Assembly: GCA_029572555.1 (NCBI GenBank)
Contig: JAKPVM010000211.1
Location: 373 to 64,372 of the forward strand
Reading direction: 5' to 3'
Source: Verrucomicrobiota bacterium
GTDB taxonomy: Bacteria > Verrucomicrobiota > Verrucomicrobiia > Limisphaerales > JAKPVM01
DNA length: 64,000 nt
In this document: positions 35,583 to 64,000 of the stretch, piece after piece
Numbering within the stretch: the stretch's first letter is position 1
Layout: each line of letters opens with the position of its first letter
The notes under the pieces: generated by a model
Told to the model about the DNA's origin: nothing
Databases searched by the model: none
Seen by the model: only the letters and a program-made list of their open reading frames with translations
Position numbers and translations under genes: made by a program

Positions 35583-35777
35583 ATGTTCAATAACTTAGTC
35601 AGAAAATTAATGATTAATTTAAAGCCTTATTTGAGAGATAGATTTGATGAACTTTGCAAAAAGGGGAATAGAGAAATTGCAAATTACAACATTTATCAAC
35701 TTTGTTGTGATCTTTATTATTTGATTAAAAAGGGAATTGATAACGGAAATCAGACCTCTAATTTTTTAACATTATGA
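35583..35777 (+). CDS. questionable 64-aa ORF whose stop overlaps the giant-gene start (ATGA)
   Basis: ORF-track ORF in a very AT-rich leader. Its TGA at 35775-35777 overlaps the ATG at 35774. No recognisable motif. It may be a chance ORF. Confidence 0.2.
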   Translation: MFNNLVRKLMINLKPYLRDRFDELCKKGNREIANYNIYQLCCDLYYLIKKGIDNGNQTSNFLTL

Positions 35778-41700: not shown

Positions 41701-44152
41701 TGCATCGTTAAAATTGCAAATTCCGACTCTTGTATTAACGGATAATTTTGAAGACAGGGTTGTAACTAATTCTACCTCTGGATATGGTCGTTCAAGTAAT
41801 GTTAATGCTACGCGACAAAGCGGTGAACCAATTAGTGTCGGTAAAAGAGGGACAAATTCGGTCTGGATGTCATGGGTAGTTTCCGCTTCTGGGATTGCAA
41901 CGGTCAGTCTGCAAGGTAGTAGTTTTGATACATTGCTTGCTGTCTACACTGGTTCTTCTCTTACGAATTTGGTTCAAGTTGCGGCAAATGATGATGCGGA
42001 ACTTACTGAAAAATACAGTGAAGTTAGGTTTAACGCTACAGCTGGCACTGAGTATATTATTGCTGTTGATGGACTTGGTGGTGGCGGAGAAATTGTAATG
42101 AATTGGTCTATGGAGGCAACAGCGGCAAGATTACCAGAGATTGTTTTCGAACCAAGCGATACAAATGTTCAAGAAGGGGCAAGCATATTTTTTGAATCAA
42201 CATCTGCTTCTGGACGGGCAACGGTTGAATGGTATTTCAATGGTGTATTGATTGCTTCAAATTTAACATCACTAACGTTGGAAAATGTGACCACGGATAA
42301 GGTGGGTATATATCAGGCTGTTTTAAAGGAAGGCGAGCGGGTAATTTCCACTAAACCAGCACGATTACAAATAAATCAGGTTGATGGAGTTTCAGACCCA
42401 AGGTTATCATCGCACGACAAATTTGGAGAGGCACTTGAGCGAGTGTTTGAAAATTACTCCACTAATCCATCACAACATTCACCCCGCAGGATAATAAGAA
42501 ATCAAGGTCCGTCGCGTGGATTTACTGGTTCACAAGTATTTAGCACTTACGGTTCTACAACGGATCCGGGAGAGCCTATACATTGTGGAGTTCCAGGCGG
42601 GGCATCGGAGTGGTTTATTTATCAAGCGCCGACAAATGGTTTGCTTGTAATAGATACCTTTGGCAGCACGTTTGATACCGTTTTAGCTGTTTATGATGTT
42701 GCTGACAATTATCCACCGGGGAATTACAGCGACCTCAGGTCGGTAGCCTGCAACAACGATGTTTCATCTACAAATACTCTTAGCAGAGTTGAATTTTATG
42801 CTACTGCGGAAACTATTTATTACATTGCTGTTGATGGGGTGGGGGGTTCCTCTGGGACAGTATATCTTAATTATAATTTGACCGCTCCACCAACAATTGT
42901 AAACCAACCTCAAAATCAAATTGTAATGGAGGGTACAAATGTCTCTTTCTCTGTAACTGCAAACGGCACGAATTTAACATATCAATGGAGATTTAATTCA
43001 GTGAATATAAATGGCGGAACGAATGGTACCCTTTTATTAACAAATGTGAATTCAAGTAGCGCCGGATATTATTCTGTGATTGTTAGCAACATTGCAGGAA
43101 TGGTAATTAGTTCAAATGCCTTATTAACAATTAACTCGTCGCCTATGATTATCACTCAGCCTTCAAACGTTGTGGTAGCAAAAGGAGGGAATGCAAATTT
43201 ACTTGCATCTGTTTTAGGCACATCACCACTTGGCTATCAATGGCTATTTAATTCAACCCCTATTTCATACGGAACGAGTAATTTGTTAAGTTTGACCAGC
43301 GTTGAACCGACAGCCTCCGGACAATATAAACTTATAGTTACAAACAGCGTTGGCGTTGTAACAAGTTCGCCCGCTTATTTAACTGTGGTTGTCCCATCGA
43401 ATCAGGTTATTTTAACGGCTGAGGATACCACGAGTTTAATAACTCTTGGTCCTGCCAGCACTAACGGTGTCGTTTTAGGTTATATAATAACTTCTGCTCC
43501 TACAAATGGGGTTTTATCCGGTAATGGCAACTTAAGAAGCTATGCACCGCTAACCAATTATTCTGGAAGTGATACGTTTAAATTCGCTATTTACGACGGC
43601 GCCTATACATCGGAACAGGCGACAGTATCATTAACTATTAGCGAAGTAAACGATCCACCTGCATTCGGATTGATGACAAATATAGTTGAATATGAAAACT
43701 GCTTAATTAATTTTGTTTGTCCTGCAATGGATGTGGAAACACCGGTACCAAACCTACTATTTTCGCTGGGTGCGGGCGCCCCTGAAGGCGCTACTATTTC
43801 TCCCTCGGGAGAATTTTTATGGACACCATCCTCATCACAGATTGGCACAAATCCTGTAAGGATTATAGTTACCGATACAGGGACACCTCCTTTATCGGCT
43901 ACTCAATCAATTTGTATTACAGTCTTACAATTAAAACCAATTGAAATTACACGTATTGAAACCACGACGAATGGTTTGATTAGATTGTTAATACAGGGAA
44001 GAGTCGGGAGGACTAACACAATTGAGTCAACTATTATATTCAATGTATGGACACCTGAAACAAACATCGTTCCGTCAGTAGAAACTTTTGAGTGGTTTAT
44101 TAATCCTTTACCTCAAAATAAAAGGTTTTATCGGGTAAAAGTAAGAAACTAA
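35774..44152 (+). CDS. giant secreted mosaic protein: Ig-like arrays, RCC1-like propeller, SBBP beta-propeller repeats, two PPC-like beta-sandwiches, cadherin-like domains, short C-terminal module
   Basis: 2792 aa. Signal peptide MKALKLFFLLLILLCADTIA. Approximate map:
- Ig 35853-36105.
- Two ...GPGYLTFWWKLDADDGGELT / ...VRWTLKKGELSQRFSIQAWLDNVSY jelly-roll-like regions 36110-37020.
- Ig 37025-37300.
- RCC1-like 37300-38100.
- 5 Ig 38108-39387.
- SBBP 39390-40700.
- 4 Ig 40700-41722.
- PPC-like 41740-42110 (SGEP...FDTLLAVYTG...NDD...AGTEYIIAVDG).
- Ig 42130-42380.
- PPC-like 42500-42880 (PGEP...FDTVLAVYDV...NND...YYIAVDG).
- 2 Ig 42885-43390.
- Cadherin-like 43390-43930 (VNDPPAF; SGEFLWTPSSSQIGTNPVRIIVTDTGTPPLS).
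- Ends ...NKRFYRVKVRN. Confidence 0.9.
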   Translation: MKALKLFFLLLILLCADTIAIIGNTNSPVILKQPTSRTVIPFSTTRFYVQADGGQPLYYQWFKEDTPILSATNNDFIILKSQLLDAGLYKIVVSNLYGSITSTPAFLNIDSNALSDALDNSQLIFNSAGESTWFKQTNIFYFGGDSAQGEVFLTNGQSFIETTIVGPGYLTFWWKLDADDGGELTVDIFKEDSLIVYDNSANDLLTTFQINGYGEVADQIILNANSVMFPLIVNYFSFTYWGQGFNGNEKMDLRFYLNDGLDGAPGTQIWDSGWFSISETQKSMVIFDEDFGLQLNTQSFTWSISTMGIETGESTGLWLYSPPTIGNNYTDYWTRTNENWDLRFSEQAPIDFEAKLGVMQINQTNILSFFGYTDWRYDYVYIPSGINTVRWTLKKGELSQRFSIQAWLDNVSYISCQNNEPIIISQPLNQKVPAGGTATFTVETVGSQPFSYQWYKNGIPLQDDGKFYGSKSNVFIINNVQSDDIDNYFVVVTNSYGASISSNVWLRTHPLAAFGNNWFGQTIIPQSATNVIQISAGGNHNLALRNDGTVVAWGCNDFGQTDVPILSNVVQIAAGELHSLALLANGTVVGWGNNDFGQISIPGNLSDVVSIAAGAYHSLALKADGTVVAWGDDSCSQVDVPNNLIGVVAIDGGYNHSVALLNNGRVVVWGGFNAMQQTSGLTNIISVAAGCDYNLALRSDGSVISWGKYFIVPLEISNIVAIDAGHDFNLALRNDGTLFVWANQTGTAQSEIVRFDQVENAIAIAEGGNHFLVLQGNGEPHFTVNPKSTRAFLTKNILFGAAAVGNQPVTYQWLFNNLPILTATNNFLVVDNLLVENSGFYTCVASNIMGIANSTVAHLTVMSPAAPLITQHPSSTNLIVNQKLILSVTASGSQPLYYQWQKDGVNLPGETNSLLIINEVNPDNVGVYNVIVNNDFGFQVSMSAIVNVLSPPIITYQPRGCDLVSGENAMLFVSVSGSEPFSFQWRKNGESLINETNSMLQLYNVTDSFAGAYDVVVSNLFGVVTSALAFITVGIPPEIVSEPSDATAIAGSNVQFSVSSTGSDPLFYQWRLNDFEIPGETNSILLIRNVSEANAGLYSVYVWNRYGSYLSVAASLTVHVPPIITEQPKDLEVESGAAAIFEVSAIGTPPLAYQWLKDSNVLIGQTNTELVIDSAGIQNGGVYSVIVSNLGGVVVSQPAKLVIKISPEFVWAYNIGGAEQDSTKVVASDSSGNLVAVCQIIGNLNINGTNIKSRGYSDVLILKYSGGGDILWLEQAGGTWNDNPTGLAIDSENSIYIAGMYEKSATFGNTNILQNGAQESGLLRSDTDIFIAKYNKDGILQWVKTAGGIGNESVTSIAIDGNGNLIVVGIYEDVTIFENQTFPSVGEQDLFIAKYTSAGNLMWVKTAGGFGKDKINSVAADDSGNIYITGSYSTGMRFGNIVLESLVQPDVFVAKYDLNGKVLWVKSFPGDDAEDGTAIAVSPSGEKIYVGGIFGVIGKSVKMTFGNNTFQSISGIDIFIVQLDSNGNPVMSDAYDYGYFDYLSSISISLQNKILLTGSTCGEICKGIVLLLDERSESANPYFLNTDEFFINNANVLSGCFTCDNSIYIGGNFVDSASFGTIYLISAGGTDGFLAKISQYSAGPPIIIGQPVDRQTLIGGNVRFQAGVIGTPPFYYQWFKNNQTIVGATNPFLEIKNATYFDEGDYYVIITNPYGSVSSRNVHLSIAIAPSIVVEPQDIQVSVGENVSMSANVEGTSPMTFNWYHNGVLIPMANSSSILLSAISIEDAGEYQLIVTNIAGCSTSRVAVLTVGMMPVIVQQPENQQTVAGISAEFSVIAKGNEPLYYQWYFNDSLLLGETNRELRLYRATTLISGEYFVTVSNPYGTATSRVVMLTVAVPPQILVQPVSQLVSLGGSVTFTVVPVDATGVNYQWFKDEKAIPMATNSTIEIQNINFADAGAYHVVLYNFIGGTRSDIASLKLQIPTLVLTDNFEDRVVTNSTSGYGRSSNVNATRQSGEPISVGKRGTNSVWMSWVVSASGIATVSLQGSSFDTLLAVYTGSSLTNLVQVAANDDAELTEKYSEVRFNATAGTEYIIAVDGLGGGGEIVMNWSMEATAARLPEIVFEPSDTNVQEGASIFFESTSASGRATVEWYFNGVLIASNLTSLTLENVTTDKVGIYQAVLKEGERVISTKPARLQINQVDGVSDPRLSSHDKFGEALERVFENYSTNPSQHSPRRIIRNQGPSRGFTGSQVFSTYGSTTDPGEPIHCGVPGGASEWFIYQAPTNGLLVIDTFGSTFDTVLAVYDVADNYPPGNYSDLRSVACNNDVSSTNTLSRVEFYATAETIYYIAVDGVGGSSGTVYLNYNLTAPPTIVNQPQNQIVMEGTNVSFSVTANGTNLTYQWRFNSVNINGGTNGTLLLTNVNSSSAGYYSVIVSNIAGMVISSNALLTINSSPMIITQPSNVVVAKGGNANLLASVLGTSPLGYQWLFNSTPISYGTSNLLSLTSVEPTASGQYKLIVTNSVGVVTSSPAYLTVVVPSNQVILTAEDTTSLITLGPASTNGVVLGYIITSAPTNGVLSGNGNLRSYAPLTNYSGSDTFKFAIYDGAYTSEQATVSLTISEVNDPPAFGLMTNIVEYENCLINFVCPAMDVETPVPNLLFSLGAGAPEGATISPSGEFLWTPSSSQIGTNPVRIIVTDTGTPPLSATQSICITVLQLKPIEITRIETTTNGLIRLLIQGRVGRTNTIESTIIFNVWTPETNIVPSVETFEWFINPLPQNKRFYRVKVRN
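37300..38100 (+). repeat. seven short RCC1-like propeller blades (intragenic, approximate borders)
   Basis: Seven ~38-aa units of the form [VI]-x-I-[AS]-[AG]-G-x-x-H-[NS]-[LV]-AL-x-x-[DN]-G-[TS]-V-x-[AGV]-WG-x-[ND]-x-x-GQ. Examples: VIQISAGGNHNLALRNDGTVVAWGCNDFGQ, VVQIAAGELHSLALLANGTVVGWGNNDFGQ, VVSIAAGAYHSLALKADGTVVAWGDDSCSQ. Confidence 0.8.
38108..39387 (+). repeat. five tandem Ig-like (I-set type) domains (intragenic, approximate borders)
   Basis: Units carry the motifs PVTYQWLFNN, PLYYQWQKDG, PFSFQWRKNG, PLFYQWRLND and PLAYQWLKDS. Each is followed by [DN]-x-G-x-Y-x-[CV]-x-[AV]-x-N. Confidence 0.85.
39390..40700 (+). repeat. SBBP-type beta-propeller repeats (intragenic, approximate borders)
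   Basis: Recurrent ~55-aa units with D-[IV]-[FL]-I-[AL]-KY-x-x-x-G-x-[IL]-x-W-[VL]-[KE]-[TQS]-[AF]-GG and D-x-x-GN-[IL]-Y-[IV]-[AT]-G. Examples: DVLILKYSGGGDILWLEQAGG, DIFIAKYNKDGILQWVKTAGG, DLFIAKYTSAGNLMWVKTAGG, DVFVAKYDLNGKVLWVKSFPG. Confidence 0.8.
40700..41722 (+). repeat. four tandem Ig-like (I-set type) domains (intragenic, approximate borders)
   Basis: Motifs PPFYYQWFKNN, PMTFNWYHNG, PLYYQWYFND, GVNYQWFKDE, each with a downstream D-x-G-x-Y. Confidence 0.85.
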
Positions 44153-51966: not shown

Positions 51967-54900
51967 TTATTTCCTAATTTGTTTTAGGCTGAACAGTTCA
52001 AAGATTCCATAAGAAACCGTTGAGTAGTTTAATCCCGGAGGAGGTCCTTTTGGTGGGGCTTGTTGGAACATTCCAGGCCATGCGCTCCCAAGAGGTGGAT
52101 TATTGTGGTGTGGCCCAAGGGTGTTTTTAAGTGTGCCAATAACTACAACATCGATAGTATTTGTCCCGTTTTTTATAAATGGACTTACATTGCACTCAAA
52201 TGGCTCAAAGCCGATATATCCTGCTAATCTGTTGTTCACTATTACTTTTGCAACGCTGCCATACCAATTGTTAAGACAAACTCGGTATTCACCTTCCATT
52301 TTATTGATAACAAATTTTTGAGAATATGATATACCTGCTGAATAAAATGGATGTCCTTGTTTGTTCCAACCCGTTGTTTGGGATTCGAGCCCGCTATTAT
52401 CGATTAAATGTTTTGTAACCCTTTGGTGTGATGGTAGTTCTGATGAATAGCTATAAATTCTGACTCCCTTGAGTTCGCTGCCATTTTTTAAAATGAATTT
52501 TACCTCAGCTAGCCCTACGAAGCCGTTATCAGGCGGGTTATCACCGCAGGGATAGGTGACACCGTTATAATTTTCCAGAATATCAAATTTTACAAAGCGG
52601 GTGTTGTTTGCATTAATTGGCAATATTTGCGGAGCTTCGGCGGCGCCGTTTGCCTTTTTTAATATAAATTCGCCGAGGTTATATTCCAGACCGCTTTTTA
52701 TTAATGTTCCGGCAGAAATACGGAGACGCTTTACTCCGCGAGTTGTCAAGTCTTTGACATGGTTTTCGTTGTAGTTCCAGATTTTGATTTCTGATAGTTC
52801 AACAATGCTGCCAAGGTCAAAAACAATAAAAGGCGCTCTATCATTTTGTAATGGTTCGTAACCGACTCCACTGCTTAGCCACATTGTACCATCGGGATTG
52901 TGAGAGTGTGTGTTATTATCAACTGGTTTGCTCAATGTTATTTGTCCATCTTCAACTATGACCCAATTCTTGTCTGCTGGTTTTAATTTAAAGCTACCGA
53001 GCACATAAATTGGTTCAATTTCATTATATATAGTCATTGGCTTTGCAAACAATTTTATTTCATTTACACCGGGTTTAACGGTATGAACTATACTCATTTT
53101 CTTAAAAGATTTATCAAGCCACCAATTTTTAGTATTGGTATTAAGTTTTGTTCCATTGCAAGTAATTTGGTTATAAATTTCAGGCTTTTCTATCACAACA
53201 GCAAGGTTTGATGGAACAGAATTTTCTATAGTAAATTTATAAGTAACCTCAAACCCGCTATTTTCAGGAAATTTATGTTTTATAATTTCATCTTTGAATT
53301 GGACTGCGCTATCCCAGGGATTGCGTGGCATTCCATTTTTGTTAAATGCAAATTGATTTGCTCTATAAAAATAAACATCGTTAAGTGTTTCGCCCCTTGC
53401 CGTTATATCAACATAATCAACAATAAGGATATTGGGTTGAAGCCGTTTTGTTGAAATGTCGCTTACGGGTTCTATTTCAGTTGAGATGAAATTAGTTTTT
53501 ACTACTTTGGTTTCATTTTTTGATAAAAATAGCAAAAGACTTCCTACCGGTGGCAATTCAAATGAAAAGTTTATGCCGCTATTTTCTTTGTTATATGGAT
53601 ATGGATAAATTTTGCCCGTGTGTGGGTCGAGTTGTTCAACACCATTTAGTCTGGTTTTTACAATGCCCTTTGATGGGACATCAATGCTTGTGTTGACAAG
53701 GAACAATATTTCCCCATCTGCGAGTTGTCTTCTATGATGGAAGAGGATTCCTTTGTCGTTTTTCTCTCTGAAAATGCCAAAGCCAGATTCAATCTGATTA
53801 TTTATTAGTAATGATATTGTTTCCTCTTGTAATAACCGGCGGTTGTTTTCGGTTATTTTGGAATTGGCTAATTGTGGCGCTAATTTTCCATCTACCCTTG
53901 TTGGCAGACTTCCACAACTTATTATATTGCCACCGTTTGCAGCAAATTTTTCAAACAATTCAATTGTTCTGCTATCCAGGTTGAATTCCAGACTAACATT
54001 CGAAGCCTTTGACTGAATAGGAGGAAAAACAACAGTATGATATGAACGTTTTCCAACTCTTAATTCTTTTCCATTAACTGCTCCATTGTTTGCGATTACA
54101 TCTTCACAACCGAGGTCATACTCAACTTGTGAAGATTCGAGTTCTTTTAAGAAGTTAAAAAATGAATTACCGATTTCATTCAATTCTTTGCCTTTTTCTT
54201 GATACATCCAGGCAGTTGTTGTGGGTTCGATTACAAGAATTTTATTGATTTGTTCTCCCTGTGTGATGGCTGCGGTAAGGCGGTGAAAATAATTTGCTAC
54301 TATATGATATGCCTCCCACCACGGTTCGTGGTATGAAAAAGATTGTGGATGGTCACGTTTACGCGCGCCACGGATTGTAATATATGAAAGATGTTCATCA
54401 AGTGTGTTTACCCCAAAGACTTGTAGCCAATCGCCGATTCGTTTCATATCCTCAAATCTCAGATCCCATCCGCCTGCGCCATAGAGTTCAACGAGCGTTC
54501 TTCGTCTCCCAAGTTGATTTGCTATGCTTGAAATCTCTTTACAAGACCTAATGTTGCCAAATTGTGAGTGGGTATTTTCAGAGTATTGATTCATTAAAAT
54601 GTCAATGCCGGGTCTATGTTGCCATGCTGCCATTGCCATATTATCAGGTACTGAAATACAAATAGGCCAATCGTGTTCCCAGTAATGACCTGTGAATTCA
54701 AGGTTGTTTGTTGAACAATATTCGTAATACGGTTTTGCCCATCGTTCTATAAATAGAGTAAGAAGAGTAGAATAATAGTTATGTCTAACCATCTGCCAAT
54801 CACCAACTTCCTTCGTGAGCGATGGTAGATTATCCAGTAAACTATATCTCCATTTTTTTCGGAATTGTTGGTTTATATCATCAGTCCAGGGAAATCCGCC

Positions 54901-55647
54901 AGCGGGTCTAATTTCTGGTTCATCGGTGAAAGAACCGGGTACTCGCTTGCCAAATTGGTTTCCTATTTTTCTACGGTATGCTTCTAAGGTTACATTTAAA
55001 AATTTTTCAGTAACTCCTGGTTGTATCAAATCTACATAGAACCTGTTTCCATGCCACGCTGATATGGGGGCAAATTGTTTGAAAGCAGTCAGATACCTTC
55101 CTTCAGTAAAAACTTTGTTCCTTAAAACATCAGTTGTAATATTTTTGATTGTATTATCTTCGATTTTATAAATGGCAATTATATTTGTGTTCCATTGTGT
55201 AGGGGTTGATGATTCTTTAAAATGAAGACCCTTTCCCCGAGATTCTGGCATCAATTCTGGTACCCATCCGCCAGCAAATCCAGAAGGATAAGAATTTTCG
55301 TCATAAATCCAGATGTTCATATCTAACCGCTCGGCTTGTTTAAGAGCCAATTTCCAGAGTTCAAACCACTCTTCTGATAAGTAAGGTGTCATTAATCCGG
55401 GACGCGGATGCACAAAGACCTGTTTTACCCCTTGAGATGACAAATCTTGCATAGTGCTTTTTATTTGTTCTTCGGTCAGCATATCATTCCATACCCACAG
55501 CGGAGAACTTGCATATTCTCGTGGGGGATTTATGAATAGTTTTTGTAAATCTCTATAAGTGGGGTTTGCTCCACAAGTGTAGTTGAATGCCACAAAAAAT
55601 AAAATTGCTATTATGAAGAGTCGCACAATTTGATTTTTTATTTTCAT
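51967..55647 (-). CDS. large secreted glycoside-hydrolase-like protein with discoidin (F5/8 type C)-like domain; family uncertain
   Basis: 1226 aa. Signal peptide. N-terminus INPPREYASSPLWVWNDMLTEEQI...GVKQVFVHPRPGLMTPYLSEEWF...IWIYDENSYPSGFAGG resembles uncharacterised GH-like TIM-barrel proteins. Region VFDLGSIVELSEIKIWNYNENHVKDLTTRGVKRLRISA resembles a discoidin/CBM32-type domain. Confidence 0.75.
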   Translation of the reverse strand: MKIKNQIVRLFIIAILFFVAFNYTCGANPTYRDLQKLFINPPREYASSPLWVWNDMLTEEQIKSTMQDLSSQGVKQVFVHPRPGLMTPYLSEEWFELWKLALKQAERLDMNIWIYDENSYPSGFAGGWVPELMPESRGKGLHFKESSTPTQWNTNIIAIYKIEDNTIKNITTDVLRNKVFTEGRYLTAFKQFAPISAWHGNRFYVDLIQPGVTEKFLNVTLEAYRRKIGNQFGKRVPGSFTDEPEIRPAGGFPWTDDINQQFRKKWRYSLLDNLPSLTKEVGDWQMVRHNYYSTLLTLFIERWAKPYYEYCSTNNLEFTGHYWEHDWPICISVPDNMAMAAWQHRPGIDILMNQYSENTHSQFGNIRSCKEISSIANQLGRRRTLVELYGAGGWDLRFEDMKRIGDWLQVFGVNTLDEHLSYITIRGARKRDHPQSFSYHEPWWEAYHIVANYFHRLTAAITQGEQINKILVIEPTTTAWMYQEKGKELNEIGNSFFNFLKELESSQVEYDLGCEDVIANNGAVNGKELRVGKRSYHTVVFPPIQSKASNVSLEFNLDSRTIELFEKFAANGGNIISCGSLPTRVDGKLAPQLANSKITENNRRLLQEETISLLINNQIESGFGIFREKNDKGILFHHRRQLADGEILFLVNTSIDVPSKGIVKTRLNGVEQLDPHTGKIYPYPYNKENSGINFSFELPPVGSLLLFLSKNETKVVKTNFISTEIEPVSDISTKRLQPNILIVDYVDITARGETLNDVYFYRANQFAFNKNGMPRNPWDSAVQFKDEIIKHKFPENSGFEVTYKFTIENSVPSNLAVVIEKPEIYNQITCNGTKLNTNTKNWWLDKSFKKMSIVHTVKPGVNEIKLFAKPMTIYNEIEPIYVLGSFKLKPADKNWVIVEDGQITLSKPVDNNTHSHNPDGTMWLSSGVGYEPLQNDRAPFIVFDLGSIVELSEIKIWNYNENHVKDLTTRGVKRLRISAGTLIKSGLEYNLGEFILKKANGAAEAPQILPINANNTRFVKFDILENYNGVTYPCGDNPPDNGFVGLAEVKFILKNGSELKGVRIYSYSSELPSHQRVTKHLIDNSGLESQTTGWNKQGHPFYSAGISYSQKFVINKMEGEYRVCLNNWYGSVAKVIVNNRLAGYIGFEPFECNVSPFIKNGTNTIDVVVIGTLKNTLGPHHNNPPLGSAWPGMFQQAPPKGPPPGLNYSTVSYGIFELFSLKQIRK

Positions 55648-55854
55648 AATTCAATTATGTAAAAAACTGCATTTGCAAGTAAAGGAATATTAGAAAATTC
55701 TTATTAGTAGCTCAGATTAATCATAAAGTAGGCTGGTTCTATTCTCAAATTATATATATTGGCAGAAGATATGCTATTTATATATGTAAAAATATTGTTG
55801 CATTTTTTAAATGATGAGTATTAGATTTGTTTTCTATTTTAAGCCAGTATAAAA

Positions 55855-58800
55855 ATGAAAAGTTTGTTTTATAAAAGTGCCGTTTTGATGGCGGCGATGG
55901 TTTCTTGTTTAAGTCTTCAAGGTCAATATGCAACTAATTGGGTTGTGATAAACGATCATCATCGTGGGACTACAACATCGCCTTATGCGAATTTATACAA
56001 TCCGCTTGGAGATGATGCCGGATTAAGCGGATCTTTGACAAACACTGTTTCTTACGCGGTGCTATCACAGGGCGCAAAAACTCCGGCTTCCATAACAATT
56101 ATAAACAATGGTGCAGCATCCGCTGATACAATGGGCGCTCCGAATGCTGGAACTCCTGCTGGTAATTGGTTTCTACCGTATGTTGACTTTGGTTCCGGCA
56201 GTCGTGATGCGATTCAATTATCAGGATCATCGACGATTACATATACTTTTAACGGATTAGATTCCACAAAGAGATACATATTCAAAGGTACGGCTGCACG
56301 TGGTGCAAGTTATTCAGACCGATGGACTCTTGTTACATTGAATAGCGCTAACTCTTTTACTCATTCACATACTCCCACATGGGCACAGGCAACCTCGCCG
56401 AATTATGGTGTTTTGACTACTGCTGATGGTGGAACGACGGCTACGAATCAGGCTGCATTCAATTCAGGTGAAAATCGTGTTGCCGGCGCAATGATTGTGT
56501 TCAGTGATATTAATCCCGGTTCTGATGGTTCTTTTTCAATTACAGTTGAAACATATAGAGGGAATGTTCCGGGCGGTTCTTCCAGTGGTAATTACGGATA
56601 TGCGTTTTCAGCATTAAGTCTTGAGGAAATAAATATTCAACTTTCTGCGGTTGCAATAACAAATCAGCCACAAAACCAGACCGTGGTTGAATTAGGTTTA
56701 GCTACTTTCACTGCTGGGATTAGTGGAAATCCTGTTCCAACAATTCAATGGTTTAAAAATGATTTCCCAATTCTCTCTGCAACAAATTCAAGTCTTACTC
56801 TATCTCCTGCAAATCTAAGCGATGATGGCGCGATATTTTATGTCAGGGCGACTAATGCGATTAGCAATGTGGTTTACTGGGTGCAAAGTAGTAATGCAAT
56901 TCTAAGGGTAGTTCCTGATACCAATCCACCAGTTCTGCTCGGAGCGGCAAGTGGTTATCCTGACAATGTTGCAGTTTTCTTTTCAGAAAAAATCAATCCT
57001 ATTACAGCCACTAATATTACAAATTATAGTATCACGAGTTCTTATGGTAGTCTTGCTATTTATGGGGCTCTACTTGCAGCAGGAGAAACTAATGTAATTT
57101 TAACAACATCAACTCAACGGCTTGGTATTACTTATACATTAACTGTAAATGGAATCAGAGACCAATCATCCGCCGGTAATTTAATTATTACAAATAGTAG
57201 GACTACATTTGTTGCTGAGTCGTTTTTAACTGTGGATATAGGCAATCCAACTACTGCAACAATTGTTAATCCGGTGAGTGGTGGATTTAATATTACGACA
57301 GGAGGAACTAATATAGGAGACTATTCTGACCAATTTTCATTTGTTTATCGTCAGCAGGTTGGTGATTTTGATGTCAAAGTGCGTGTTTCTGAACTTACTT
57401 TAACTGACCCATGGGCAAGGGCAGGGCTGATGGTGAGGGAGAGTCTTGCGGCGAATAGCACTTTTTCGGCTGTCTTTGCGACACCAAGCGCTGTTGGTTG
57501 TTTTTTTGAGTCGCGACCAAATACTGGTGTGTCAAGTACTCGAAGCGGGTTTTATCCTGTAACCTGTCCATATACATGGCTACGGCTTAAACGATCGGGC
57601 AGCACTTTCAGAGGATATGCAAGTTTTAACGGAGAAAATTGGTATCAACTTGGTTCAGCGACAATTAATATGCCTTCAAGTGTATATTTTGGTATGGCTG
57701 TAAGTAGCAGGAACGGGGCAATGCTGGCTACTGCTGGTTTTAGAGATATGGAGAACATATTCAGCGATACCGGAGTTTATGTCTCAATGCCAATTGAACC
57801 GTTAGGACCGTCTTCTCGCAAGACTTGCTTTGCAATAAGCGAAATAATGTATAATCATAGTAATGTAGGAGGGTATTCAAATAGTTTAGAGTTTATAGAA
57901 CTATATAATTCAAACCCATGGCCCGAAGAAATCAGCGGTTATAGCATCGGTGGCTCGGTAAAATATAAGTTTGGAAGCAATGTTTGGGTCAACGGTGGCG
58001 GTTTTGTTGTAGTAGCGCGGAATCCGAATTTAATTACACAAGTTTATGGAATTACAAATATATTTGGACCGTGGAATGATGCCGTTAATGATGGATTACC
58101 GGGTGATAAAGGCACCGTAAGGCTTTTGAGTGAAATCGGTGCTGTTTACCTTGAAGTAAACTATAATGACAGAGGTGAATGGCCTGCCGGTGCAGATGGT
58201 ACAGGACATTCTTTGGTTTTAGTCAGACCTTCTTATGGTGAGGATGACCCGCGCGCATGGGGAGTAAGTGATTTAGAAGGAGGGTCACCGGGACGAGGTG
58301 ATAGCTACAGCGGTGGAAACTTAAGAAATGTTGTAATAAATGAATTTCTTGCAAATTCCGTTGAACCATACGTTGATTATATAGAACTATATAACAAAGG
58401 AAATCAGCCTGTTGATATTTCTGCCTGCACTTTGAGCGATGATCCAATTACAAATAAATTTGTTATACCCGCTGGTACGACGATACCGGGAGGTGGTTTG
58501 GTTACATTTCGGCAAAATGACTTTGGTTTTGGTTTAGATTCAGGTGGAGAGACAATTTACTTAAAAGATTCAACAGGGCAACGAATTCTTGATTGCATAA
58601 GATATGAACCGCAAATGCCGAATCGTTCGAGCGGACGTTATCCTGACGGGGCAGCGGAGATATATCCACTCAGTGTTATGAGCCCGGGAACGAATAATTC
58701 TAATTTTAGTATATATGTTGATGATATTGTGATTAACGAGTTAATGTATGAACCCATAAGTTTTGATGAAGACGAACAATATGTAGAATTGTATAATAAC

Positions 58801-61800
58801 GGGACTAATGCAATAGATATCAGCGGATGGAAGTTCACTTCGGGCATTTCGTTTACATTTCCGAGCAACACAATAATTTCAGCCAATGGTTATCTCATTG
58901 TTGCAAAGAGCGTTAACAAACTTCTCTCCCGATATAGTGGTGAACTTGATTCTTCTATAGTTGTTGGTGATTTTTCAGGTTCGTTAGCTGGTGGCGGAGA
59001 AAGAGTAGCCCTTGGCAAACCAATACTAACCTATTCAACTAATTCGTCCGGTGTGGTCAAAAGTAATACTGTTTATGCAATAGTGGACGAGGTTACATAC
59101 GGAGTTGGAGGAAGGTGGGGAAAATGGGCGAATGAAGGTGGTAGTAGCCTTGAGTTAAGAGATGCGAGGGCAAATCACAGGCTTGCATATAACTGGGGCG
59201 ATAGTATCGAGACCTCAAAAGCACAATGGGTTACCGTTGAAGCGACAGGTCCAATGGATAATGGTAGTAGTGATACTGCAAATTATCTTGAAATCTATTT
59301 GAGCGGTGAAGGCGAAGCCTTAATTGATAATGTTGAAGTGATTAGTGGCGGAGCTAATGTTGTTGCTAATTCAACTTTTGAAGGTGGCGTAAGTGGATGG
59401 ACATTCAGGGGCACGCACGAAAGGTCAAGTTTGGAAATAACAGAAGGATACAATAGCAGCAGTTGCCTTCATATACGCGCAAGTGCGCGAGGCGATTATG
59501 GTGCAAATAGAATATTATGCTCATTGAACCCCACCCCAAGTAGTACTATAACAATTAGAGCAAAACTTAGATGGCTTTGCGGTATGCCAGAAGTTGTAAT
59601 GAGACTTCATGGAAATTCTATGGAAGCTTATGGACTACTTTTAAATCCGACTAATTATCCTAAACTTGGTACACCCGGACGACGCAATAGTATAGCAGTT
59701 GATAATGCGCCACCGGCTATTTACGAAATGAGACATAATCCTATTGTTCCAAACGCAAACCAGTCAGTTGTTGTAACGGCAAGGATTAATGATCCAGACA
59801 AAATCGGATATGTAAAATTGTATTATAGGATAGAACCTTTAAGTAATTACACAGTTGTTACAATGCTTGATAGCGGTACCGGAGGTGATAATGTTAGCAG
59901 GGATGGTGTTTACAGCGCAACAATACCCGGTCAGTCTGCGGGTACGATGGTAGCGTTCTTTGTTATAGCGGCAGATGGAACAGGTATAACAAATCAATTC
60001 CCATACAACGCTTCACCGAGTGGAAATGAATGTCTTGTGCGGTTCGGAGATGCTACGCCTATAGGGGCATTTTTCCCATACCGATTATGGCTTACTCAAA
60101 ATTCGGTTAACCGCTGGATTAATAGACCGATTTTAAGCAATGATCCGATTGAAGGCACTTTTGTTTATGGGAATTGGAGGGTAATTTATAATATGGGATC
60201 GCGGTATGCAGGAAGTCCTTACCATCAGGGATTTAGTGGTCCAACAGGAAATAATTGTCATTATGTCTTGGAAATGCCACTTGACGATAAACTACTTGGC
60301 ACTGAAAGTTTCAATAAAATTCACGGTCCGGGGAACGGTTCTTTTGATGATAATACGATTCAACGGGAGCAGACTGCTTATTGGCTTGCAAGGAAAATAG
60401 GCTTGCCGTGGTTATATCGTCGGTATGTGGCAATGTATGTGAATGGGGTAAGACGTGGCACATTGATGGAAGATATGCAAACTCCTAATGGCGATGTCGT
60501 AGAGGAGTATTTTCCAGATGATAAAGACGGTTTCTTGTATAAATTACAACCCTGGTTTGAAATGGATGATGTTGCAACTGGAAGTATGCCATTTAATAAT
60601 CGTTCCTGGTGCACATTGAATAAGTATACAACCACTGTAAATGGTGTACCTGGACGACACAAACTCGCGCGATACAGGGTTAATTATCTTGCCCGTTCAT
60701 ATAAAGGTACAGGTAGCAATTATACAAATGTATTTGCTTTGGTCGATGCAGCAAACACTTATGGTTCCGGAATTGATACTTATATGGCTAATATGGAACT
60801 GATTGTTGATGTGGAAAATTGGGTGAGAACCTTTGCTGTTGAACACGCGTGTGGAAACTGGGATAGTTTTGGAAACAGAAATGCTCAAAATATGTATGGA
60901 TACAAGCCTCTCAAAGATAGATGGAAATTAATTATATTTGATTTTAATATTGTGCTTGGTAACAGTTCTGATAATCCGGGCGCATATTTATTTCAATATA
61001 ACACCGCTGATATCCCTATGCCATATCTCTATCATAACGGCACAGTTTATCCTTATCGTAGGATTTTTTGGAGGGGAATGAAGGAGTTGTGTAACGGACC
61101 AATGTTGCCGGAAAACCTTAATAAAGTTATTGATTCTAAATACGCCGCATTTAAGGACCACGGGGTCACAACGCTTTCACCAAATATTGCAGCGCCAGAT
61201 GCAATAAAAAGTTTTATATCATCAGCACGCACAAGCATTCTCTCGCAGATGACTGCGGAAGATGCAACTTCTTTTTCAGTTGGTACCACGAATTATTTAA
61301 CCACCCCAACAAACCTTATAGAGTTTCAAGGGTCAGCGCCAGTTGAAATAACATCAATAAAAATTAATGGCTATGATTATCGGTTAAAATTGACTTCTAC
61401 AAAGACATTTACAATCAAAGTTTCTATTAGCGATGCAACAAATCGATTAGTATTTCAAGGCTATGATTATTATGGAAATCCAATCCCAACTGCAACAAAC
61501 ACTGTAACTGTGGTATATACAGGTCCGGTGGATACGCCACAAGGAAACGTTGTATTTAATGAAATTATGTATAATCCGACTAATACCGGCGCCGCTTATG
61601 TAGAGTTATACAATAATTCAACTAATTTTACCTTTGATTTGAGTGGTTGGCGAATAAATGGGCTTGGCTATGTATTTGCTTATGGGAGTTTTATTGCGCC
61701 TCGCAGTTGTATAGTCATTGCAAAAGAAATGTCTATTTTTTATCAAACTTATGGATTTTATCCGTTTGATGTATATCCGGGTGCTTTGCAAAATGATGGT

Positions 61801-64000
61801 GAAACCTTGACGTTGTTAAAACCGGAGATAGGTTCGGATGGAAAGACTAATGAAGTTATAATTGATAGAGTAAGGTATGAAGCCTTGTCGCCTTGGCCTG
61901 CGCTGGCAAATGGGCAAAGTGCTTCTTTACAATTGATTGATTCAACGAACGATAACAGTCGTGTAGCGAACTGGTCAGATGGGATGGGATGGAGATATTT
62001 TTCTTACACAGGTCAATTATCAGCATCAACTAAACGGCTGTTACTATTTCCTAATTCTGCTGGTGAGATATACATTGATGATATAAAGCTTGTGGCAGGT
62101 ACGGTTCCGGAGGTGGGAGATAATCTAATTAGAGGTGGAGATTTTGAGGGTGCATTTCTTACTAACAATGGTGGATACTGGGGAATGGCAGGTACAGGGG
62201 GGGTGCAAAGTGATATTTCCACTAATGTAAGTCACGGCGGGATGAGCAGTTTGAGGATTATATTTACTGTATCAGGAGGACAACCGAACAATATTAACCA
62301 AGATACACTTGTCACGGTTAGTAACATATACACATTAAGTTTCTGGTATTTACCTTCAACAAATGTTGAAAAGTTCACAGCCCGATTTGGTAGTTCATTT
62401 AGGCCTGAGGTTAATGTAAAGCCTATACTTTACACACCCGGTACTAACAACTCTATTGCAGTGCCATTACCGGCATTTGATCCTATCTGGTTAAACGAGG
62501 TTCAAGCGGAGAATATAACTGGTATTGTTGACAACTATGGTGAACACGACCCGTGGTTAGAGATATATAATATGGGGACAAATGCAGTTGATTTAAGTTC
62601 GTATTATCTTACAGATTCTTATAACAATTTAAACAAATGGCAATTTCCAGAAGGGACAACACTTAACGGTGGTGAATTTAAGGTTATCTGGCTTGACGGT
62701 CAGGAGAGTCAATCTACATCAGGATACATACATACAGCATTTCGGATACCCTCGACTAACGGTTCAATAGCGATTACAAAATTATTATCAAGCACATACG
62801 GTGTCATAGATTATTTAAATTATAAAAACCTTCCTGCGGATTATAGTTATGGTGATGGACCTGATGGACAACCTTTTTATAGGCAGAAGTTTTATTATCC
62901 GACGGCTGGTGGAACGAACGATATGCGCATAGTGCCGATAAGGGTGTACATTAACGAATGGATGGCTGACACCACGATTATCAATCCTGGTACTGGTGGG
63001 TATGACGACTGGTTTGAACTTTACAATGCTGAAACTAACGAGGTTGATTTAAGTGGTTATTATCTATCTGACAATCCGACAAACTTGACACAATTTGAGA
63101 TACCCAATGGTTGTGTTATACCGCCAAAGGGATTTTTACTTATCTGGGCTGATAATAATCCGACGACTACGAATCTTGTTATGCCGACAGATGTACATGT
63201 TAACTTTGCGCTTAACCGTGGTGGTGAGTCTATCGGGTTATTTGGTCCTGATGGTTCTGTTGTTGACCTTATTGAGTTTGGTTCTCAAACTACGGATTTG
63301 AGTGAAGGTCGTTATCCTGACGGTGGTTCAACCATTCGCTTTTTACAACAACCGACACCCGGCAGGACAAATTCGTTGCCTGTGATAGGTGCAAATCTTC
63401 CTCCTGTTATTGAACCTATTGAAGACAAAGTTGCTGTTGTTAATCAAACATTAAGGTTTAATGTAATAGCGACAGACCCCGATTTACCACTGCAACAATT
63501 AAGTTATGAGATAATCAGTGGTCCGACAGGTGCAACGATTGACCCTGTAAGCGGTGAATTTAGTTGGACGCCGACTACTGTGGGGACAAATGTATTTACT
63601 GTTCGCGTAATAGATAATGGTGAACCGCCGCTTGAAGCCAGTGCAAGTTTTAATGTTATTGTCAATTTGACAGGGAATCAGGCGCCCGTTCTTGAGGCAA
63701 TTGGGAACAAGGCAATAGACGAAGGCAGTTTACTGACCTTTACAGCACGGGCTACTGATGACCCTGTACAGGCGCTTAGATTTAGTCTTGGTAATGGTGC
63801 GCCCAATGGTGCATCTATTGATGCGGTGAGTGGTGTATTTAGTTGGACGCCGACGGAGTTGCAGGGTCCCGACGTATATTCTGTTACGATAATAGTTACT
63901 GACAACGGCACACCACAGATGAGCGATTCTGAGACGATTCAGATTGTTGTATCAGAGGTGAACAGCGCGCCCGTATTATTGCCTATTGGGACTCAAAATT
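55855..64000 (+). CDS. giant secreted LTD-CotH-LTD-cadherin-like protein, 3' end beyond window (NOT in supplied ORF track)
   Basis: Manual translation of frame 1 from the ATG at 55855 (MKSLFYKSAVLMAAMVSCLSLQGQYA signal peptide) is stop-free to base 64000 (2715 codons). Approximate map:
- Unknown N-terminal domain 55930-56640.
- Ig 56660-56920 (PVPTIQWFKND).
- SbsA/Big_5-like 56920-57210.
- Concanavalin/DUF1349-like 57210-57790 (GDFDVKVRVSELTLTDPWARAGLMVRES).
- LTDs at ~57840 (FAISEIMYNH..LEFIELYN), ~58330 (VVINEFLANS..DYIELYN) and ~58725 (IVINELMYEP..QYVELYN).
- CotH core ~60000-61290 (FNKIHGPGNGSFDDNTIQREQTAYWLARKIGLPW, YVNGVRRGTLMED, NMYGYKPLKDRWKLIIFDFNIVLG).
- LTDs at ~61550 (VVFNEIMYNP..AYVELYN), ~62490 (IWLNEVQAEN..PWLEIYN) and ~62945 (VYINEWMADT..DWFELYN).
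- Cadherin-like units from ~63390 (SGEFSWTPTTVGTNVFTVRVIDNGEPPL; SGVFSWTPTELQGPDVYSVTIIVTDNGTPQM). Confidence 0.85.
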   Translation, partial: MKSLFYKSAVLMAAMVSCLSLQGQYATNWVVINDHHRGTTTSPYANLYNPLGDDAGLSGSLTNTVSYAVLSQGAKTPASITIINNGAASADTMGAPNAGTPAGNWFLPYVDFGSGSRDAIQLSGSSTITYTFNGLDSTKRYIFKGTAARGASYSDRWTLVTLNSANSFTHSHTPTWAQATSPNYGVLTTADGGTTATNQAAFNSGENRVAGAMIVFSDINPGSDGSFSITVETYRGNVPGGSSSGNYGYAFSALSLEEINIQLSAVAITNQPQNQTVVELGLATFTAGISGNPVPTIQWFKNDFPILSATNSSLTLSPANLSDDGAIFYVRATNAISNVVYWVQSSNAILRVVPDTNPPVLLGAASGYPDNVAVFFSEKINPITATNITNYSITSSYGSLAIYGALLAAGETNVILTTSTQRLGITYTLTVNGIRDQSSAGNLIITNSRTTFVAESFLTVDIGNPTTATIVNPVSGGFNITTGGTNIGDYSDQFSFVYRQQVGDFDVKVRVSELTLTDPWARAGLMVRESLAANSTFSAVFATPSAVGCFFESRPNTGVSSTRSGFYPVTCPYTWLRLKRSGSTFRGYASFNGENWYQLGSATINMPSSVYFGMAVSSRNGAMLATAGFRDMENIFSDTGVYVSMPIEPLGPSSRKTCFAISEIMYNHSNVGGYSNSLEFIELYNSNPWPEEISGYSIGGSVKYKFGSNVWVNGGGFVVVARNPNLITQVYGITNIFGPWNDAVNDGLPGDKGTVRLLSEIGAVYLEVNYNDRGEWPAGADGTGHSLVLVRPSYGEDDPRAWGVSDLEGGSPGRGDSYSGGNLRNVVINEFLANSVEPYVDYIELYNKGNQPVDISACTLSDDPITNKFVIPAGTTIPGGGLVTFRQNDFGFGLDSGGETIYLKDSTGQRILDCIRYEPQMPNRSSGRYPDGAAEIYPLSVMSPGTNNSNFSIYVDDIVINELMYEPISFDEDEQYVELYNNGTNAIDISGWKFTSGISFTFPSNTIISANGYLIVAKSVNKLLSRYSGELDSSIVVGDFSGSLAGGGERVALGKPILTYSTNSSGVVKSNTVYAIVDEVTYGVGGRWGKWANEGGSSLELRDARANHRLAYNWGDSIETSKAQWVTVEATGPMDNGSSDTANYLEIYLSGEGEALIDNVEVISGGANVVANSTFEGGVSGWTFRGTHERSSLEITEGYNSSSCLHIRASARGDYGANRILCSLNPTPSSTITIRAKLRWLCGMPEVVMRLHGNSMEAYGLLLNPTNYPKLGTPGRRNSIAVDNAPPAIYEMRHNPIVPNANQSVVVTARINDPDKIGYVKLYYRIEPLSNYTVVTMLDSGTGGDNVSRDGVYSATIPGQSAGTMVAFFVIAADGTGITNQFPYNASPSGNECLVRFGDATPIGAFFPYRLWLTQNSVNRWINRPILSNDPIEGTFVYGNWRVIYNMGSRYAGSPYHQGFSGPTGNNCHYVLEMPLDDKLLGTESFNKIHGPGNGSFDDNTIQREQTAYWLARKIGLPWLYRRYVAMYVNGVRRGTLMEDMQTPNGDVVEEYFPDDKDGFLYKLQPWFEMDDVATGSMPFNNRSWCTLNKYTTTVNGVPGRHKLARYRVNYLARSYKGTGSNYTNVFALVDAANTYGSGIDTYMANMELIVDVENWVRTFAVEHACGNWDSFGNRNAQNMYGYKPLKDRWKLIIFDFNIVLGNSSDNPGAYLFQYNTADIPMPYLYHNGTVYPYRRIFWRGMKELCNGPMLPENLNKVIDSKYAAFKDHGVTTLSPNIAAPDAIKSFISSARTSILSQMTAEDATSFSVGTTNYLTTPTNLIEFQGSAPVEITSIKINGYDYRLKLTSTKTFTIKVSISDATNRLVFQGYDYYGNPIPTATNTVTVVYTGPVDTPQGNVVFNEIMYNPTNTGAAYVELYNNSTNFTFDLSGWRINGLGYVFAYGSFIAPRSCIVIAKEMSIFYQTYGFYPFDVYPGALQNDGETLTLLKPEIGSDGKTNEVIIDRVRYEALSPWPALANGQSASLQLIDSTNDNSRVANWSDGMGWRYFSYTGQLSASTKRLLLFPNSAGEIYIDDIKLVAGTVPEVGDNLIRGGDFEGAFLTNNGGYWGMAGTGGVQSDISTNVSHGGMSSLRIIFTVSGGQPNNINQDTLVTVSNIYTLSFWYLPSTNVEKFTARFGSSFRPEVNVKPILYTPGTNNSIAVPLPAFDPIWLNEVQAENITGIVDNYGEHDPWLEIYNMGTNAVDLSSYYLTDSYNNLNKWQFPEGTTLNGGEFKVIWLDGQESQSTSGYIHTAFRIPSTNGSIAITKLLSSTYGVIDYLNYKNLPADYSYGDGPDGQPFYRQKFYYPTAGGTNDMRIVPIRVYINEWMADTTIINPGTGGYDDWFELYNAETNEVDLSGYYLSDNPTNLTQFEIPNGCVIPPKGFLLIWADNNPTTTNLVMPTDVHVNFALNRGGESIGLFGPDGSVVDLIEFGSQTTDLSEGRYPDGGSTIRFLQQPTPGRTNSLPVIGANLPPVIEPIEDKVAVVNQTLRFNVIATDPDLPLQQLSYEIISGPTGATIDPVSGEFSWTPTTVGTNVFTVRVIDNGEPPLEASASFNVIVNLTGNQAPVLEAIGNKAIDEGSLLTFTARATDDPVQALRFSLGNGAPNGASIDAVSGVFSWTPTELQGPDVYSVTIIVTDNGTPQMSDSETIQIVVSEVNSAPVLLPIGTQN

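Follow-up and report, generated by a model that had tools for sequence, protein, structure and literature searches.

The last 8 kb of a 64,000-nucleotide stretch of Verrucomicrobiota DNA (contig JAKPVM010000211.1; the whole stretch is hereafter called the window) are occupied by a single giant gene, of which the window contains the first 95%. The gene comprises 2870 codons, is genuine, intact and monocistronic, and comes from a Verrucomicrobiia-like bacterium with a low guanine-plus-cytosine (GC) content. We hypothesize, with a probability of roughly 0.6, that its product, of ~309 kDa, is exported by Sec and located at the cell surface or outside the cell, with an active kinase of the CotH family mounted on a series of β-sandwich modules for binding and spacing. 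The gene is one more ordinary member of a known, annotated and functionally unstudied class of verrucomicrobial proteins that combine lamin tail domains (LTDs) with CotH, and is not a new kind of system.

An open frame cut by the window edge

Translation of the window in six frames gave 2715 codons and no stop in forward frame 1, from the ATG at position 55855 to base 64000. No other start codon lies between this ATG and an in-frame TAA (55840-55842) four codons upstream. Based on the base composition of the region, the probability of a stop is 0.066 per codon, i.e. one stop per ~15 codons, and the probability of 2715 open codons arising by chance is ~1e-81. The remaining five frames contain 120-295 stops each over the same interval. 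GC content at codon positions 1, 2 and 3 is 0.47, 0.46 and 0.30, respectively, which is a coding signature. The list of open reading frames (ORFs) supplied with the DNA holds only ten entries over 55855-64000, each of 60-94 amino acids and eight of them antisense, and has no ORF of at least 150 amino acids after 55647. This gap exists because the list omits ORFs running off either end of the window; the apparent emptiness of the last 8 kb is an artefact of the list, and the region is fully coding. An earlier note on this DNA had described the stop-free frame, the short and mostly antisense listed ORFs and the list's need for a closing stop, and each of these descriptions was borne out. For genome scans, the lesson is that an ORF list of this type hides genes cut by a window edge.

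The earlier note had also considered the true size of the gene to be unknown, which holds within the window; the size is now settled through an overlapping contig. A 44-base probe from the window end matched Ga0116174_10120460 (L001), a metagenome contig of 1403 bases, the reverse complement of which overlaps window positions 63817-64000 with 183 of 184 bases identical. The same probe had no exact match in a collection of genome contigs, and no encoding contig was on record for the neighbouring protein of 1226 amino acids. Because the sole mismatch amounts to a single Ser to Thr change, L001 derives from a near-identical strain. It adds 155 codons followed by TAA, at the equivalent of 64465-64467, and closes the frame at codon 2870. 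The recovered C-terminus reads ...NKRYQIEYADTLESNWL...QRFFRTRVLN before the stop. An ending of ~72 residues is common to the giant gene (via L001) and 25 of the 26 aligned untruncated homologs, which supports the L001 stop as the true gene end. A convergent ORF of 214 amino acids (L001 93-737, plus strand of L001) ends 16 bases beyond this stop and, by its look, presumably encodes the C-terminal repeat region of DNA gyrase subunit A.

The giant gene was compared with that of its closest homolog (P0001, at locus L002). The proportion of nonsynonymous differences (pN) is 0.15 and that of synonymous differences (pS) is 0.81; the latter is saturated, so the ratio of the corresponding substitution rates is not quantifiable and only a pN far below pS can be stated. 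On this comparison, the gene is under purifying selection.

A CotH kinase module within a collinear family

Modules were assigned using Pfam hmmscan on the whole protein and on segments, an iterated LTD profile of our own, and NCBIfam. The 2870-residue precursor begins with a putative signal peptide and a head domain, followed by an immunoglobulin (Ig) domain, a Big_5-like and a DUF1349-like module, three LTDs, a module resembling carbohydrate-binding modules (CBMs), an Ig-like domain with a choice-of-anchor X motif, and CotH. After CotH come an Ig-like linker, an LTD, a second CBM-like module, two further LTDs, three He_PIG repeats and a terminal tail (Table 1). In total there are about 17 β-sandwich modules, and the mature protein has a calculated mass of ~309 kDa and an isoelectric point of 4.7. 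The LTD family (PF00932) matched six stretches with 269 bits (E 3e-81), and the same six were recovered by our own profile. He_PIG scored 45.7 bits on the whole protein, 66 bits on the C-terminal segment and 37.8 bits on the L001 segment, while Cadherin reached 32.3 bits, above its cut-off of 28.8, in a separate scan of the C-terminal segment. The Ig domain, six LTDs, CotH core and cadherin-like units that the earlier note had read from the sequence were thus all recovered by hmmscan; the Big_5-, DUF1349- and CBM4/9-like modules are additional to its domain calls. Homologs of the giant protein carry PF13205 (Big_5), and PF07081 (DUF1349) is precomputed on four of them (P0004, P0009, P0019 and P0030). 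The LTD copies are only 18-38% identical to each other and no DNA tandem repeats were found; for these two reasons the LTD repeats are held to be ancient.

The CotH family (PF08757) matched residues 1494-1767 with 52.5 bits against a cut-off of 23.8. A single-sequence phmmer search with the CotH region gave no match in the PDB, and a 12-sequence profile of residues 1400-1800 matched only the Bacillus cereus CotH structures 5jd9 and 5jda (E 6e-9). In the alignment of this profile to 5jd9, D1670 (GNWDSF) corresponds to D224 of B. cereus (NFDGF) and D1696 (IFDFN) to D247 (WDYD), and the Asp-Asp spacing of 23 residues is as in D228/D251 of Bacillus subtilis; the offset between the two Bacillus numberings was taken from this spacing rather than from a direct alignment. 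Catalytic residues were defined according to PMC7821199, in which the B. subtilis CotH mutants D228Q and D251A are catalytically dead. In an alignment of 30 sequences of the family, K1563, D1670, N1679 and D1696 are invariant, while identity among homologs within the CotH module is 32-53%. The CotH module also displays the lowest pN of all modules (0.085, versus the P0001 gene). An AlphaFold2 (AF2) model generated from the 12-sequence alignment had a predicted local distance difference test score (pLDDT) of 64 and a predicted template modelling score (pTM) of 0.68. Its best PDB matches were again 5jd9 and 5jda (E 8e-11 and 5e-10; template modelling score, TM, 0.61-0.68, with 0.62/0.68 for 5jd9), followed by the atypical kinases CtkA, HipA and PI4K at E>=6e-3. 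The module is apparently competent, with the predicted fold and catalytic residues of an active kinase, and the embedded atypical kinase is probably active.

With Bacillus CotH (5jd9/5jda and the B. subtilis protein), the module has in common the Pfam family, the atypical kinase fold and the Asp residues equivalent to D228/D251, but identity is just 14%, and an insertion makes the stretch from the catalytic Asp to the conserved Asn four residues longer in the giant protein. The Bacillus protein has ~360 amino acids (359 residues in the 5jd9 chain) and assembles into the spore coat, whereas here CotH is one module in a protein of 2870 amino acids. Spore formation is not known from the host lineage.

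The exact sequence of the giant protein was absent from the databases searched, including a collection of 5.8 billion proteins. The best match (P0001, 76% identical) is a partial protein from the Verrucomicrobiia metagenome-assembled genome (MAG) GCA_049969835.1. In all, ~30 homologs of 2300-3700 amino acids (P0001-P0031) were found in Verrucomicrobiia MAGs, with 35-76% identity over 65-95% of the query. Those named by NCBI are called "lamin tail domain-containing protein" and assigned to Verrucomicrobia or Verrucomicrobiia, so the earlier description of the gene as unannotated is correct for the supplied ORF list and not for the homologs. Twenty-nine homologs are collinear with the giant protein in module order, with 35-55% identity per module, and these Verrucomicrobiia LTD giants display the same Ig-to-tail order, signal-peptide layout and terminal tail as the giant gene. 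There are two exceptions to the collinearity. The head of the giant gene is found in four homologs only (P0001, P0002, P0003 and P0027), and the second CBM-like module is missing in about one third of the homologs, its coverage being 2-8% in P0010-13, P0021, P0022, P0025, P0027 and P0031.

Two further observations were made on the closest homologs. Identity to P0002 is a mosaic, falling from 70% in the head to 38% in CotH and rising again to 74-78% from LTD4 to LTD6, which points to recombination or an exchange of modules within the family. In addition, P0001 (L002, GCA_049969835.1) and P0002 are also partial genes ending at contig ends. Assemblies seem to break regularly in such giant genes rich in repeats, which would therefore be systematically under-annotated.

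Predicted export, termini and genomic setting

The N-terminus, MKSLFYKSAVLMAAMVSCLSLQG followed by Q, is shaped like a Sec signal peptide and contains the sole hydrophobic 19-mer peak in the protein. It aligns with the N-termini of P0001-P0003, where the layout ends in G or S before Q. The putative signal peptide proposed in the earlier note is supported by this lone hydrophobic stretch and by homolog N-termini of the same layout. Further characters expected of a giant surface protein are a gene of 8.6 kb (above 5 kb), tandem Ig- and cadherin-like modules and the lack of a cytoplasmic enzyme core, all of which were found. Over 90% of the giant genes of bacteria code for surface proteins or for polyketide synthases/non-ribosomal peptide synthetases, according to Reva & Tummler 2008 (quoted in PMC5177795). 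He_PIG, cadherin-like, CBM and choice-of-anchor X modules are typical of extracellular proteins.

A hydrophobicity scan of the giant protein revealed no transmembrane anchor. A lipoprotein was rejected, as the residues around Cys18 (MVSC) do not form a canonical lipobox and homologs do not conserve them. No dockerin family was present among the Pfam matches of the whole protein or its segments. With respect to a PEP-CTERM/exosortase signal, the C-terminus ...SPKQRFFRTRVLN has no hydrophobic segment and gave no NCBIfam match. Anchoring through the type IX secretion system (T9SS), PEP-CTERM or dockerin was rejected, since no corresponding Pfam or NCBIfam model matches.

The C-terminus instead carries a tail of ~60-72 amino acids (...W...RF[YF]R, then 3-6 amino acids and the stop) that ends all three giant proteins of the window. 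A six-frame search of the window with a profile of this tail matched these three giant genes only, 3-5 residues before their stops (E values of 2.5e-13, 2.8e-6 and 4.4e-5). The tail had no NCBIfam match at E<=0.1, and no Pfam match at E<=1 was obtained for 20 tail sequences; within the same limits, and comparing sequence models only, it did not match the C-terminal domain (CTD) of T9SS substrates (Por_Secre_tail). Against the PDB, there was only a weak match to a glucanase/chitosanase chain (E 0.002). The iterated profile found the tail in 120 of 244 proteins of very different architectures, a set that is biased towards relatives of the giant gene, and 114 of 121 matches lie within 6 residues of the C-terminus. 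On a wider protein collection the profile returned just contig-end fragments of 69-132 amino acids, which are little informative on distribution. No paper on the RF[YF]R motif in this context was found. The positional rule is as expected of a C-terminal sorting or anchoring domain, for which the tail is a candidate.

At the opposite end of the mature protein, the head has no family model in Pfam or NCBIfam and no sequence relative in the PDB. The AF2 model of the head is all-β (pLDDT 91, pTM 0.91). It had no neighbour among PDB structures at E≤1e-3 and is weakly similar to predicted phage proteins, among them a tail-fibre protein (E ~3e-5, TM 0.41-0.54). By sequence, 411 representative clusters contain matches to the head (305 at E≤1e-10). 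Their proteins, of 250-4500 amino acids, otherwise differ, and in them the head usually follows directly on a signal peptide and is sometimes present as two or three copies. Taken with its distribution among the homologs, the head is interchangeable between family members.

The genes surrounding the giant gene, aside from the divergent GH106-like gene (glycoside hydrolase family 106; Table 1), include those for a class-V aminotransferase, a holB-like protein, Wzy_C, accB, accC, thiE, pfkB, pta, der, citrate synthase and guaA, and no operon partner was found in this neighbourhood. A scan of the spacer upstream of the giant gene for sigma-70-like elements found 5 sites, not above the 3.0±1.4 in shuffled sequences. 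As the earlier note had stated, the gene is the third giant of the window, joining giant genes 1 and 2; the three, of 6.5-8.6 kb, take up ~23 kb (37%) of the 64 kb. Giant gene 1 likewise has an Ig-like/choice-of-anchor X cassette before CotH. Its identity to the giant gene is 29-33% and confined to LTD and Ig modules, which rules out a recent duplication of giant gene 1; it is a distant paralog. No synteny was found with the P0001 locus (L002). At the left edge of the window (34-1734), a probable surface protein with FG-GAP repeats and Big_9 is encoded; the GTG listed as its start was assigned mechanically, and translation may in truth begin at another codon.

Table 1. Features of the giant gene and of related elements; positions are those of the window unless L001 is named
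Feature	Position	Strand	Basis or remark
Giant 1, 2171 amino acids: LTD x4, CotH, Ig x6	11618-18133
Tail of giant 1	17951-18121		Profile match
Giant 2, 2792 amino acids: ~14 Ig, RCC1 and SBBP β-propeller repeats	35774-44152
Tail of giant 2	43967-44137		Profile match
GH106-like protein (alpha-L-rhamnosidase family), 1226 amino acids, with DUF4457 region	51967-55647	-	Divergent from giant gene
AT-rich intergenic spacer, 207 bases; presumed promoter/5' untranslated region	55648..55854	+	Between GH106-like gene and giant gene
Giant gene, codons 1-2715 of 2870	55855..64000	+	Open frame, start codon, codon bias, L001 overlap, pN versus pS
Putative signal peptide, residues 1-23; probable cleavage before Q24	55855..55923	+	Hydrophobic peak, homolog layout
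Head, residues 24-265, all-β	55924..56649	+	No Pfam or NCBIfam model; AF2 model
Ig domain (Ig_3/I-set), residues 267-336	56653..56862	+	Pfam, above threshold
Big_5-like bacterial Ig, residues 370-447	56962..57195	+	Weak, E 0.0096, below cut-off
DUF1349-like, residues 488-621	57316..57717	+	Marginal, 30 bits versus cut-off 32.4
LTD 1-3, residues ~655-800, 820-945, 952-1100	57817..59154	+	Pfam and own profile
CBM_4_9-like, residues 1167-~1290	59353..59724	+	Marginal, 26.6 bits versus cut-off 25.9
Ig-like with choice-of-anchor X motif (~1335-1364), residues 1285-1395	59707..60039	+	NF041940, 29.3 bits versus 25
CotH atypical-kinase domain, residues 1400-1800	60052..61254	+	PF08757, 52.5 bits
Predicted catalytic D1670 (codon)	60862-60864	+	Profile alignment to 5jd9
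Predicted metal-binding D1696 (codon)	60940-60942	+	Profile alignment to 5jd9
Ig-like linker, residues 1829-1884	61339..61506	+	Weak Big_15, E 0.0046
LTD 4, residues 1895-2045	61537..61989	+	Pfam and own profile
Second CBM_4_9-like, residues 2090-2165	62122..62349	+	Weak, E 0.0034
LTD 5 and 6, residues 2206-2355, 2363-2500	62470..63354	+	Pfam and own profile
He_PIG/Big_9/cadherin-like repeats 1-2 (residues 2515-2605, 2610-2698) and repeat 3 from 2705	63397..64000	+	Pfam
Repeat 3 to residue 2794, RF[YF]R tail 2797-2870, stop	Beyond window		L001
Tail of giant 3 (the giant gene)	L001 756-977, equivalent to 64243-64464	- (of L001)	Profile match

Proposed function, alternatives and significance

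In the proposed mechanism, the protein would be exported by Sec to the cell surface or extracellular matrix, where the ~17 β-sandwich modules would form an extended stalk and bind glycans or other surfaces. Target specificity would be set by the variable N-terminal head, and CotH would act as an active, ATP-dependent Ser/Thr kinase on surface or matrix substrates in the manner of Bacillus CotH on spore-coat proteins. The conserved extreme C-terminal tail may help to carry the protein across the outer membrane or to attach it there. Several points weigh against this proposal. We infer the localisation, the kinase activity and the substrates alike, and the quality of the CotH model is moderate (pLDDT 64). 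The ATP-binding Lys is not mappable onto Bacillus CotH, K1563 being in an alignment gap. ATP supply is a general problem for kinases outside the cell. The neighbours are housekeeping genes and encode no machinery for secretion or anchoring. Finally, the last 155 codons are those of a near-identical strain from another sample, with one mismatch in the overlap, and not of the window itself.

A giant surface protein with a solely structural or adhesive role, in which CotH binds a ligand rather than acting as an enzyme, is unlikely. Fungal CotH proteins do act as surface ligands, with CotH2, CotH3 and CotH7 of Mucorales as ligands for host GRP78 and integrin (PMC9973265), the giant protein consists mostly of β-sandwich binding and spacer modules, and extracellular ATP is scarce. 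Against this, the residues equivalent to the catalytic and metal-binding Asp, with an Asn and a Lys, are invariant in 30 homologs despite the low identity of their CotH modules, and CotH is the most constrained module, a pattern expected of an enzyme. Alternatively, the substrate of a surface-tethered kinase could be a glycan or another non-protein molecule, and the CBM-like, DUF1349-like and head modules would help to capture or modify polysaccharide. The kinase is flanked by two CBM_4_9-like modules and one DUF1349-like module, the head shows a weak resemblance to CBM folds, the divergently transcribed neighbour encodes a GH106-like protein, and LTD-CotH proteins occur in the cellulosome of Clostridium thermocellum (Cthe_0239, PMC6083626). 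We nevertheless regard a glycan substrate as quite improbable, given that the only CotH enzymes to have been characterised phosphorylate proteins, the CBM matches are marginal and the GH106-like adjacency is not conserved at the locus of the closest homolog.

Two other readings have very little in their favour. Lamin tail domains are present, and an intracellular, lamin-like role in the cytoskeleton or cell shape has been speculated for Fuma_00096 of the planctomycete Fuerstia marisgermanicae (PMC5177795). Such a role is highly improbable here in view of the putative N-terminal signal peptide and of companion modules that are all of extracellular type; moreover, the LTD corresponds to only one part of a lamin, its Ig-fold tail, and Pfam reported neither an intermediate-filament nor a coiled-coil family for the protein. 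A non-functional sequence, whether a chance open frame or a decaying pseudogene, would explain the absence from the ORF list and nothing else, and its probability is close to nil against the ~1e-81 chance of such a frame, the codon-position bias, the full-length collinear homologs and a pN far below pS.

An exported protein with an embedded CotH kinase can be compared with two described systems. In C. thermocellum, Cthe_0239 (LTD, LTD, Fn3, CotH) and CseP/Cthe_0044 (CotH) are cellulosomal (PMC6083626). The giant protein resembles these extracellular LTD-CotH proteins in combining LTDs, β-sandwich spacers and CotH, but has no detected dockerin, is ~2.6 times heavier (309 versus 117 kDa), contains six LTDs and many extra modules, and belongs to a different phylum. 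The same cellulosome also holds an (RCC1)5 protein (PMC6083626). The module set of giants 1 and 2 (LTD-CotH and RCC1) is therefore one that recurs in extracellular systems of unrelated phyla. Fuma_00096, a gene of 8.7 kb with LTD, Ig-like and PapD-like modules for which an intracellular role was proposed (PMC5177795), is like the giant gene in exceeding 5 kb, in its many Ig-like and LTD modules and in its origin within the Planctomycetes-Verrucomicrobia-Chlamydiae superphylum. The giant gene differs from it by the embedded CotH kinase and a defined head-and-tail organisation, and its putative signal peptide argues against the intracellular role proposed for Fuma_00096.

LTD-CotH giants make up a sizeable share of Verrucomicrobiota genomes and constitute a large, uncharacterised class. 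The invariant kinase residues, the shared unmodelled tail and the interchangeable N-terminal head provide handles on its function, and they are relevant to whether secreted CotH kinases are used outside the Firmicutes. A more far-reaching proposal, which we put forward tentatively and consider doubtful at present, is that the tail is an undescribed sorting or anchoring signal of giant surface proteins in Planctomycetes-Verrucomicrobia-Chlamydiae bacteria, comparable in function to the T9SS CTD, and the head a new target-binding module, the two together characterizing surface-displayed CotH kinases. If this is true, head and tail would define a family of such kinases that phosphorylate extracellular substrates.

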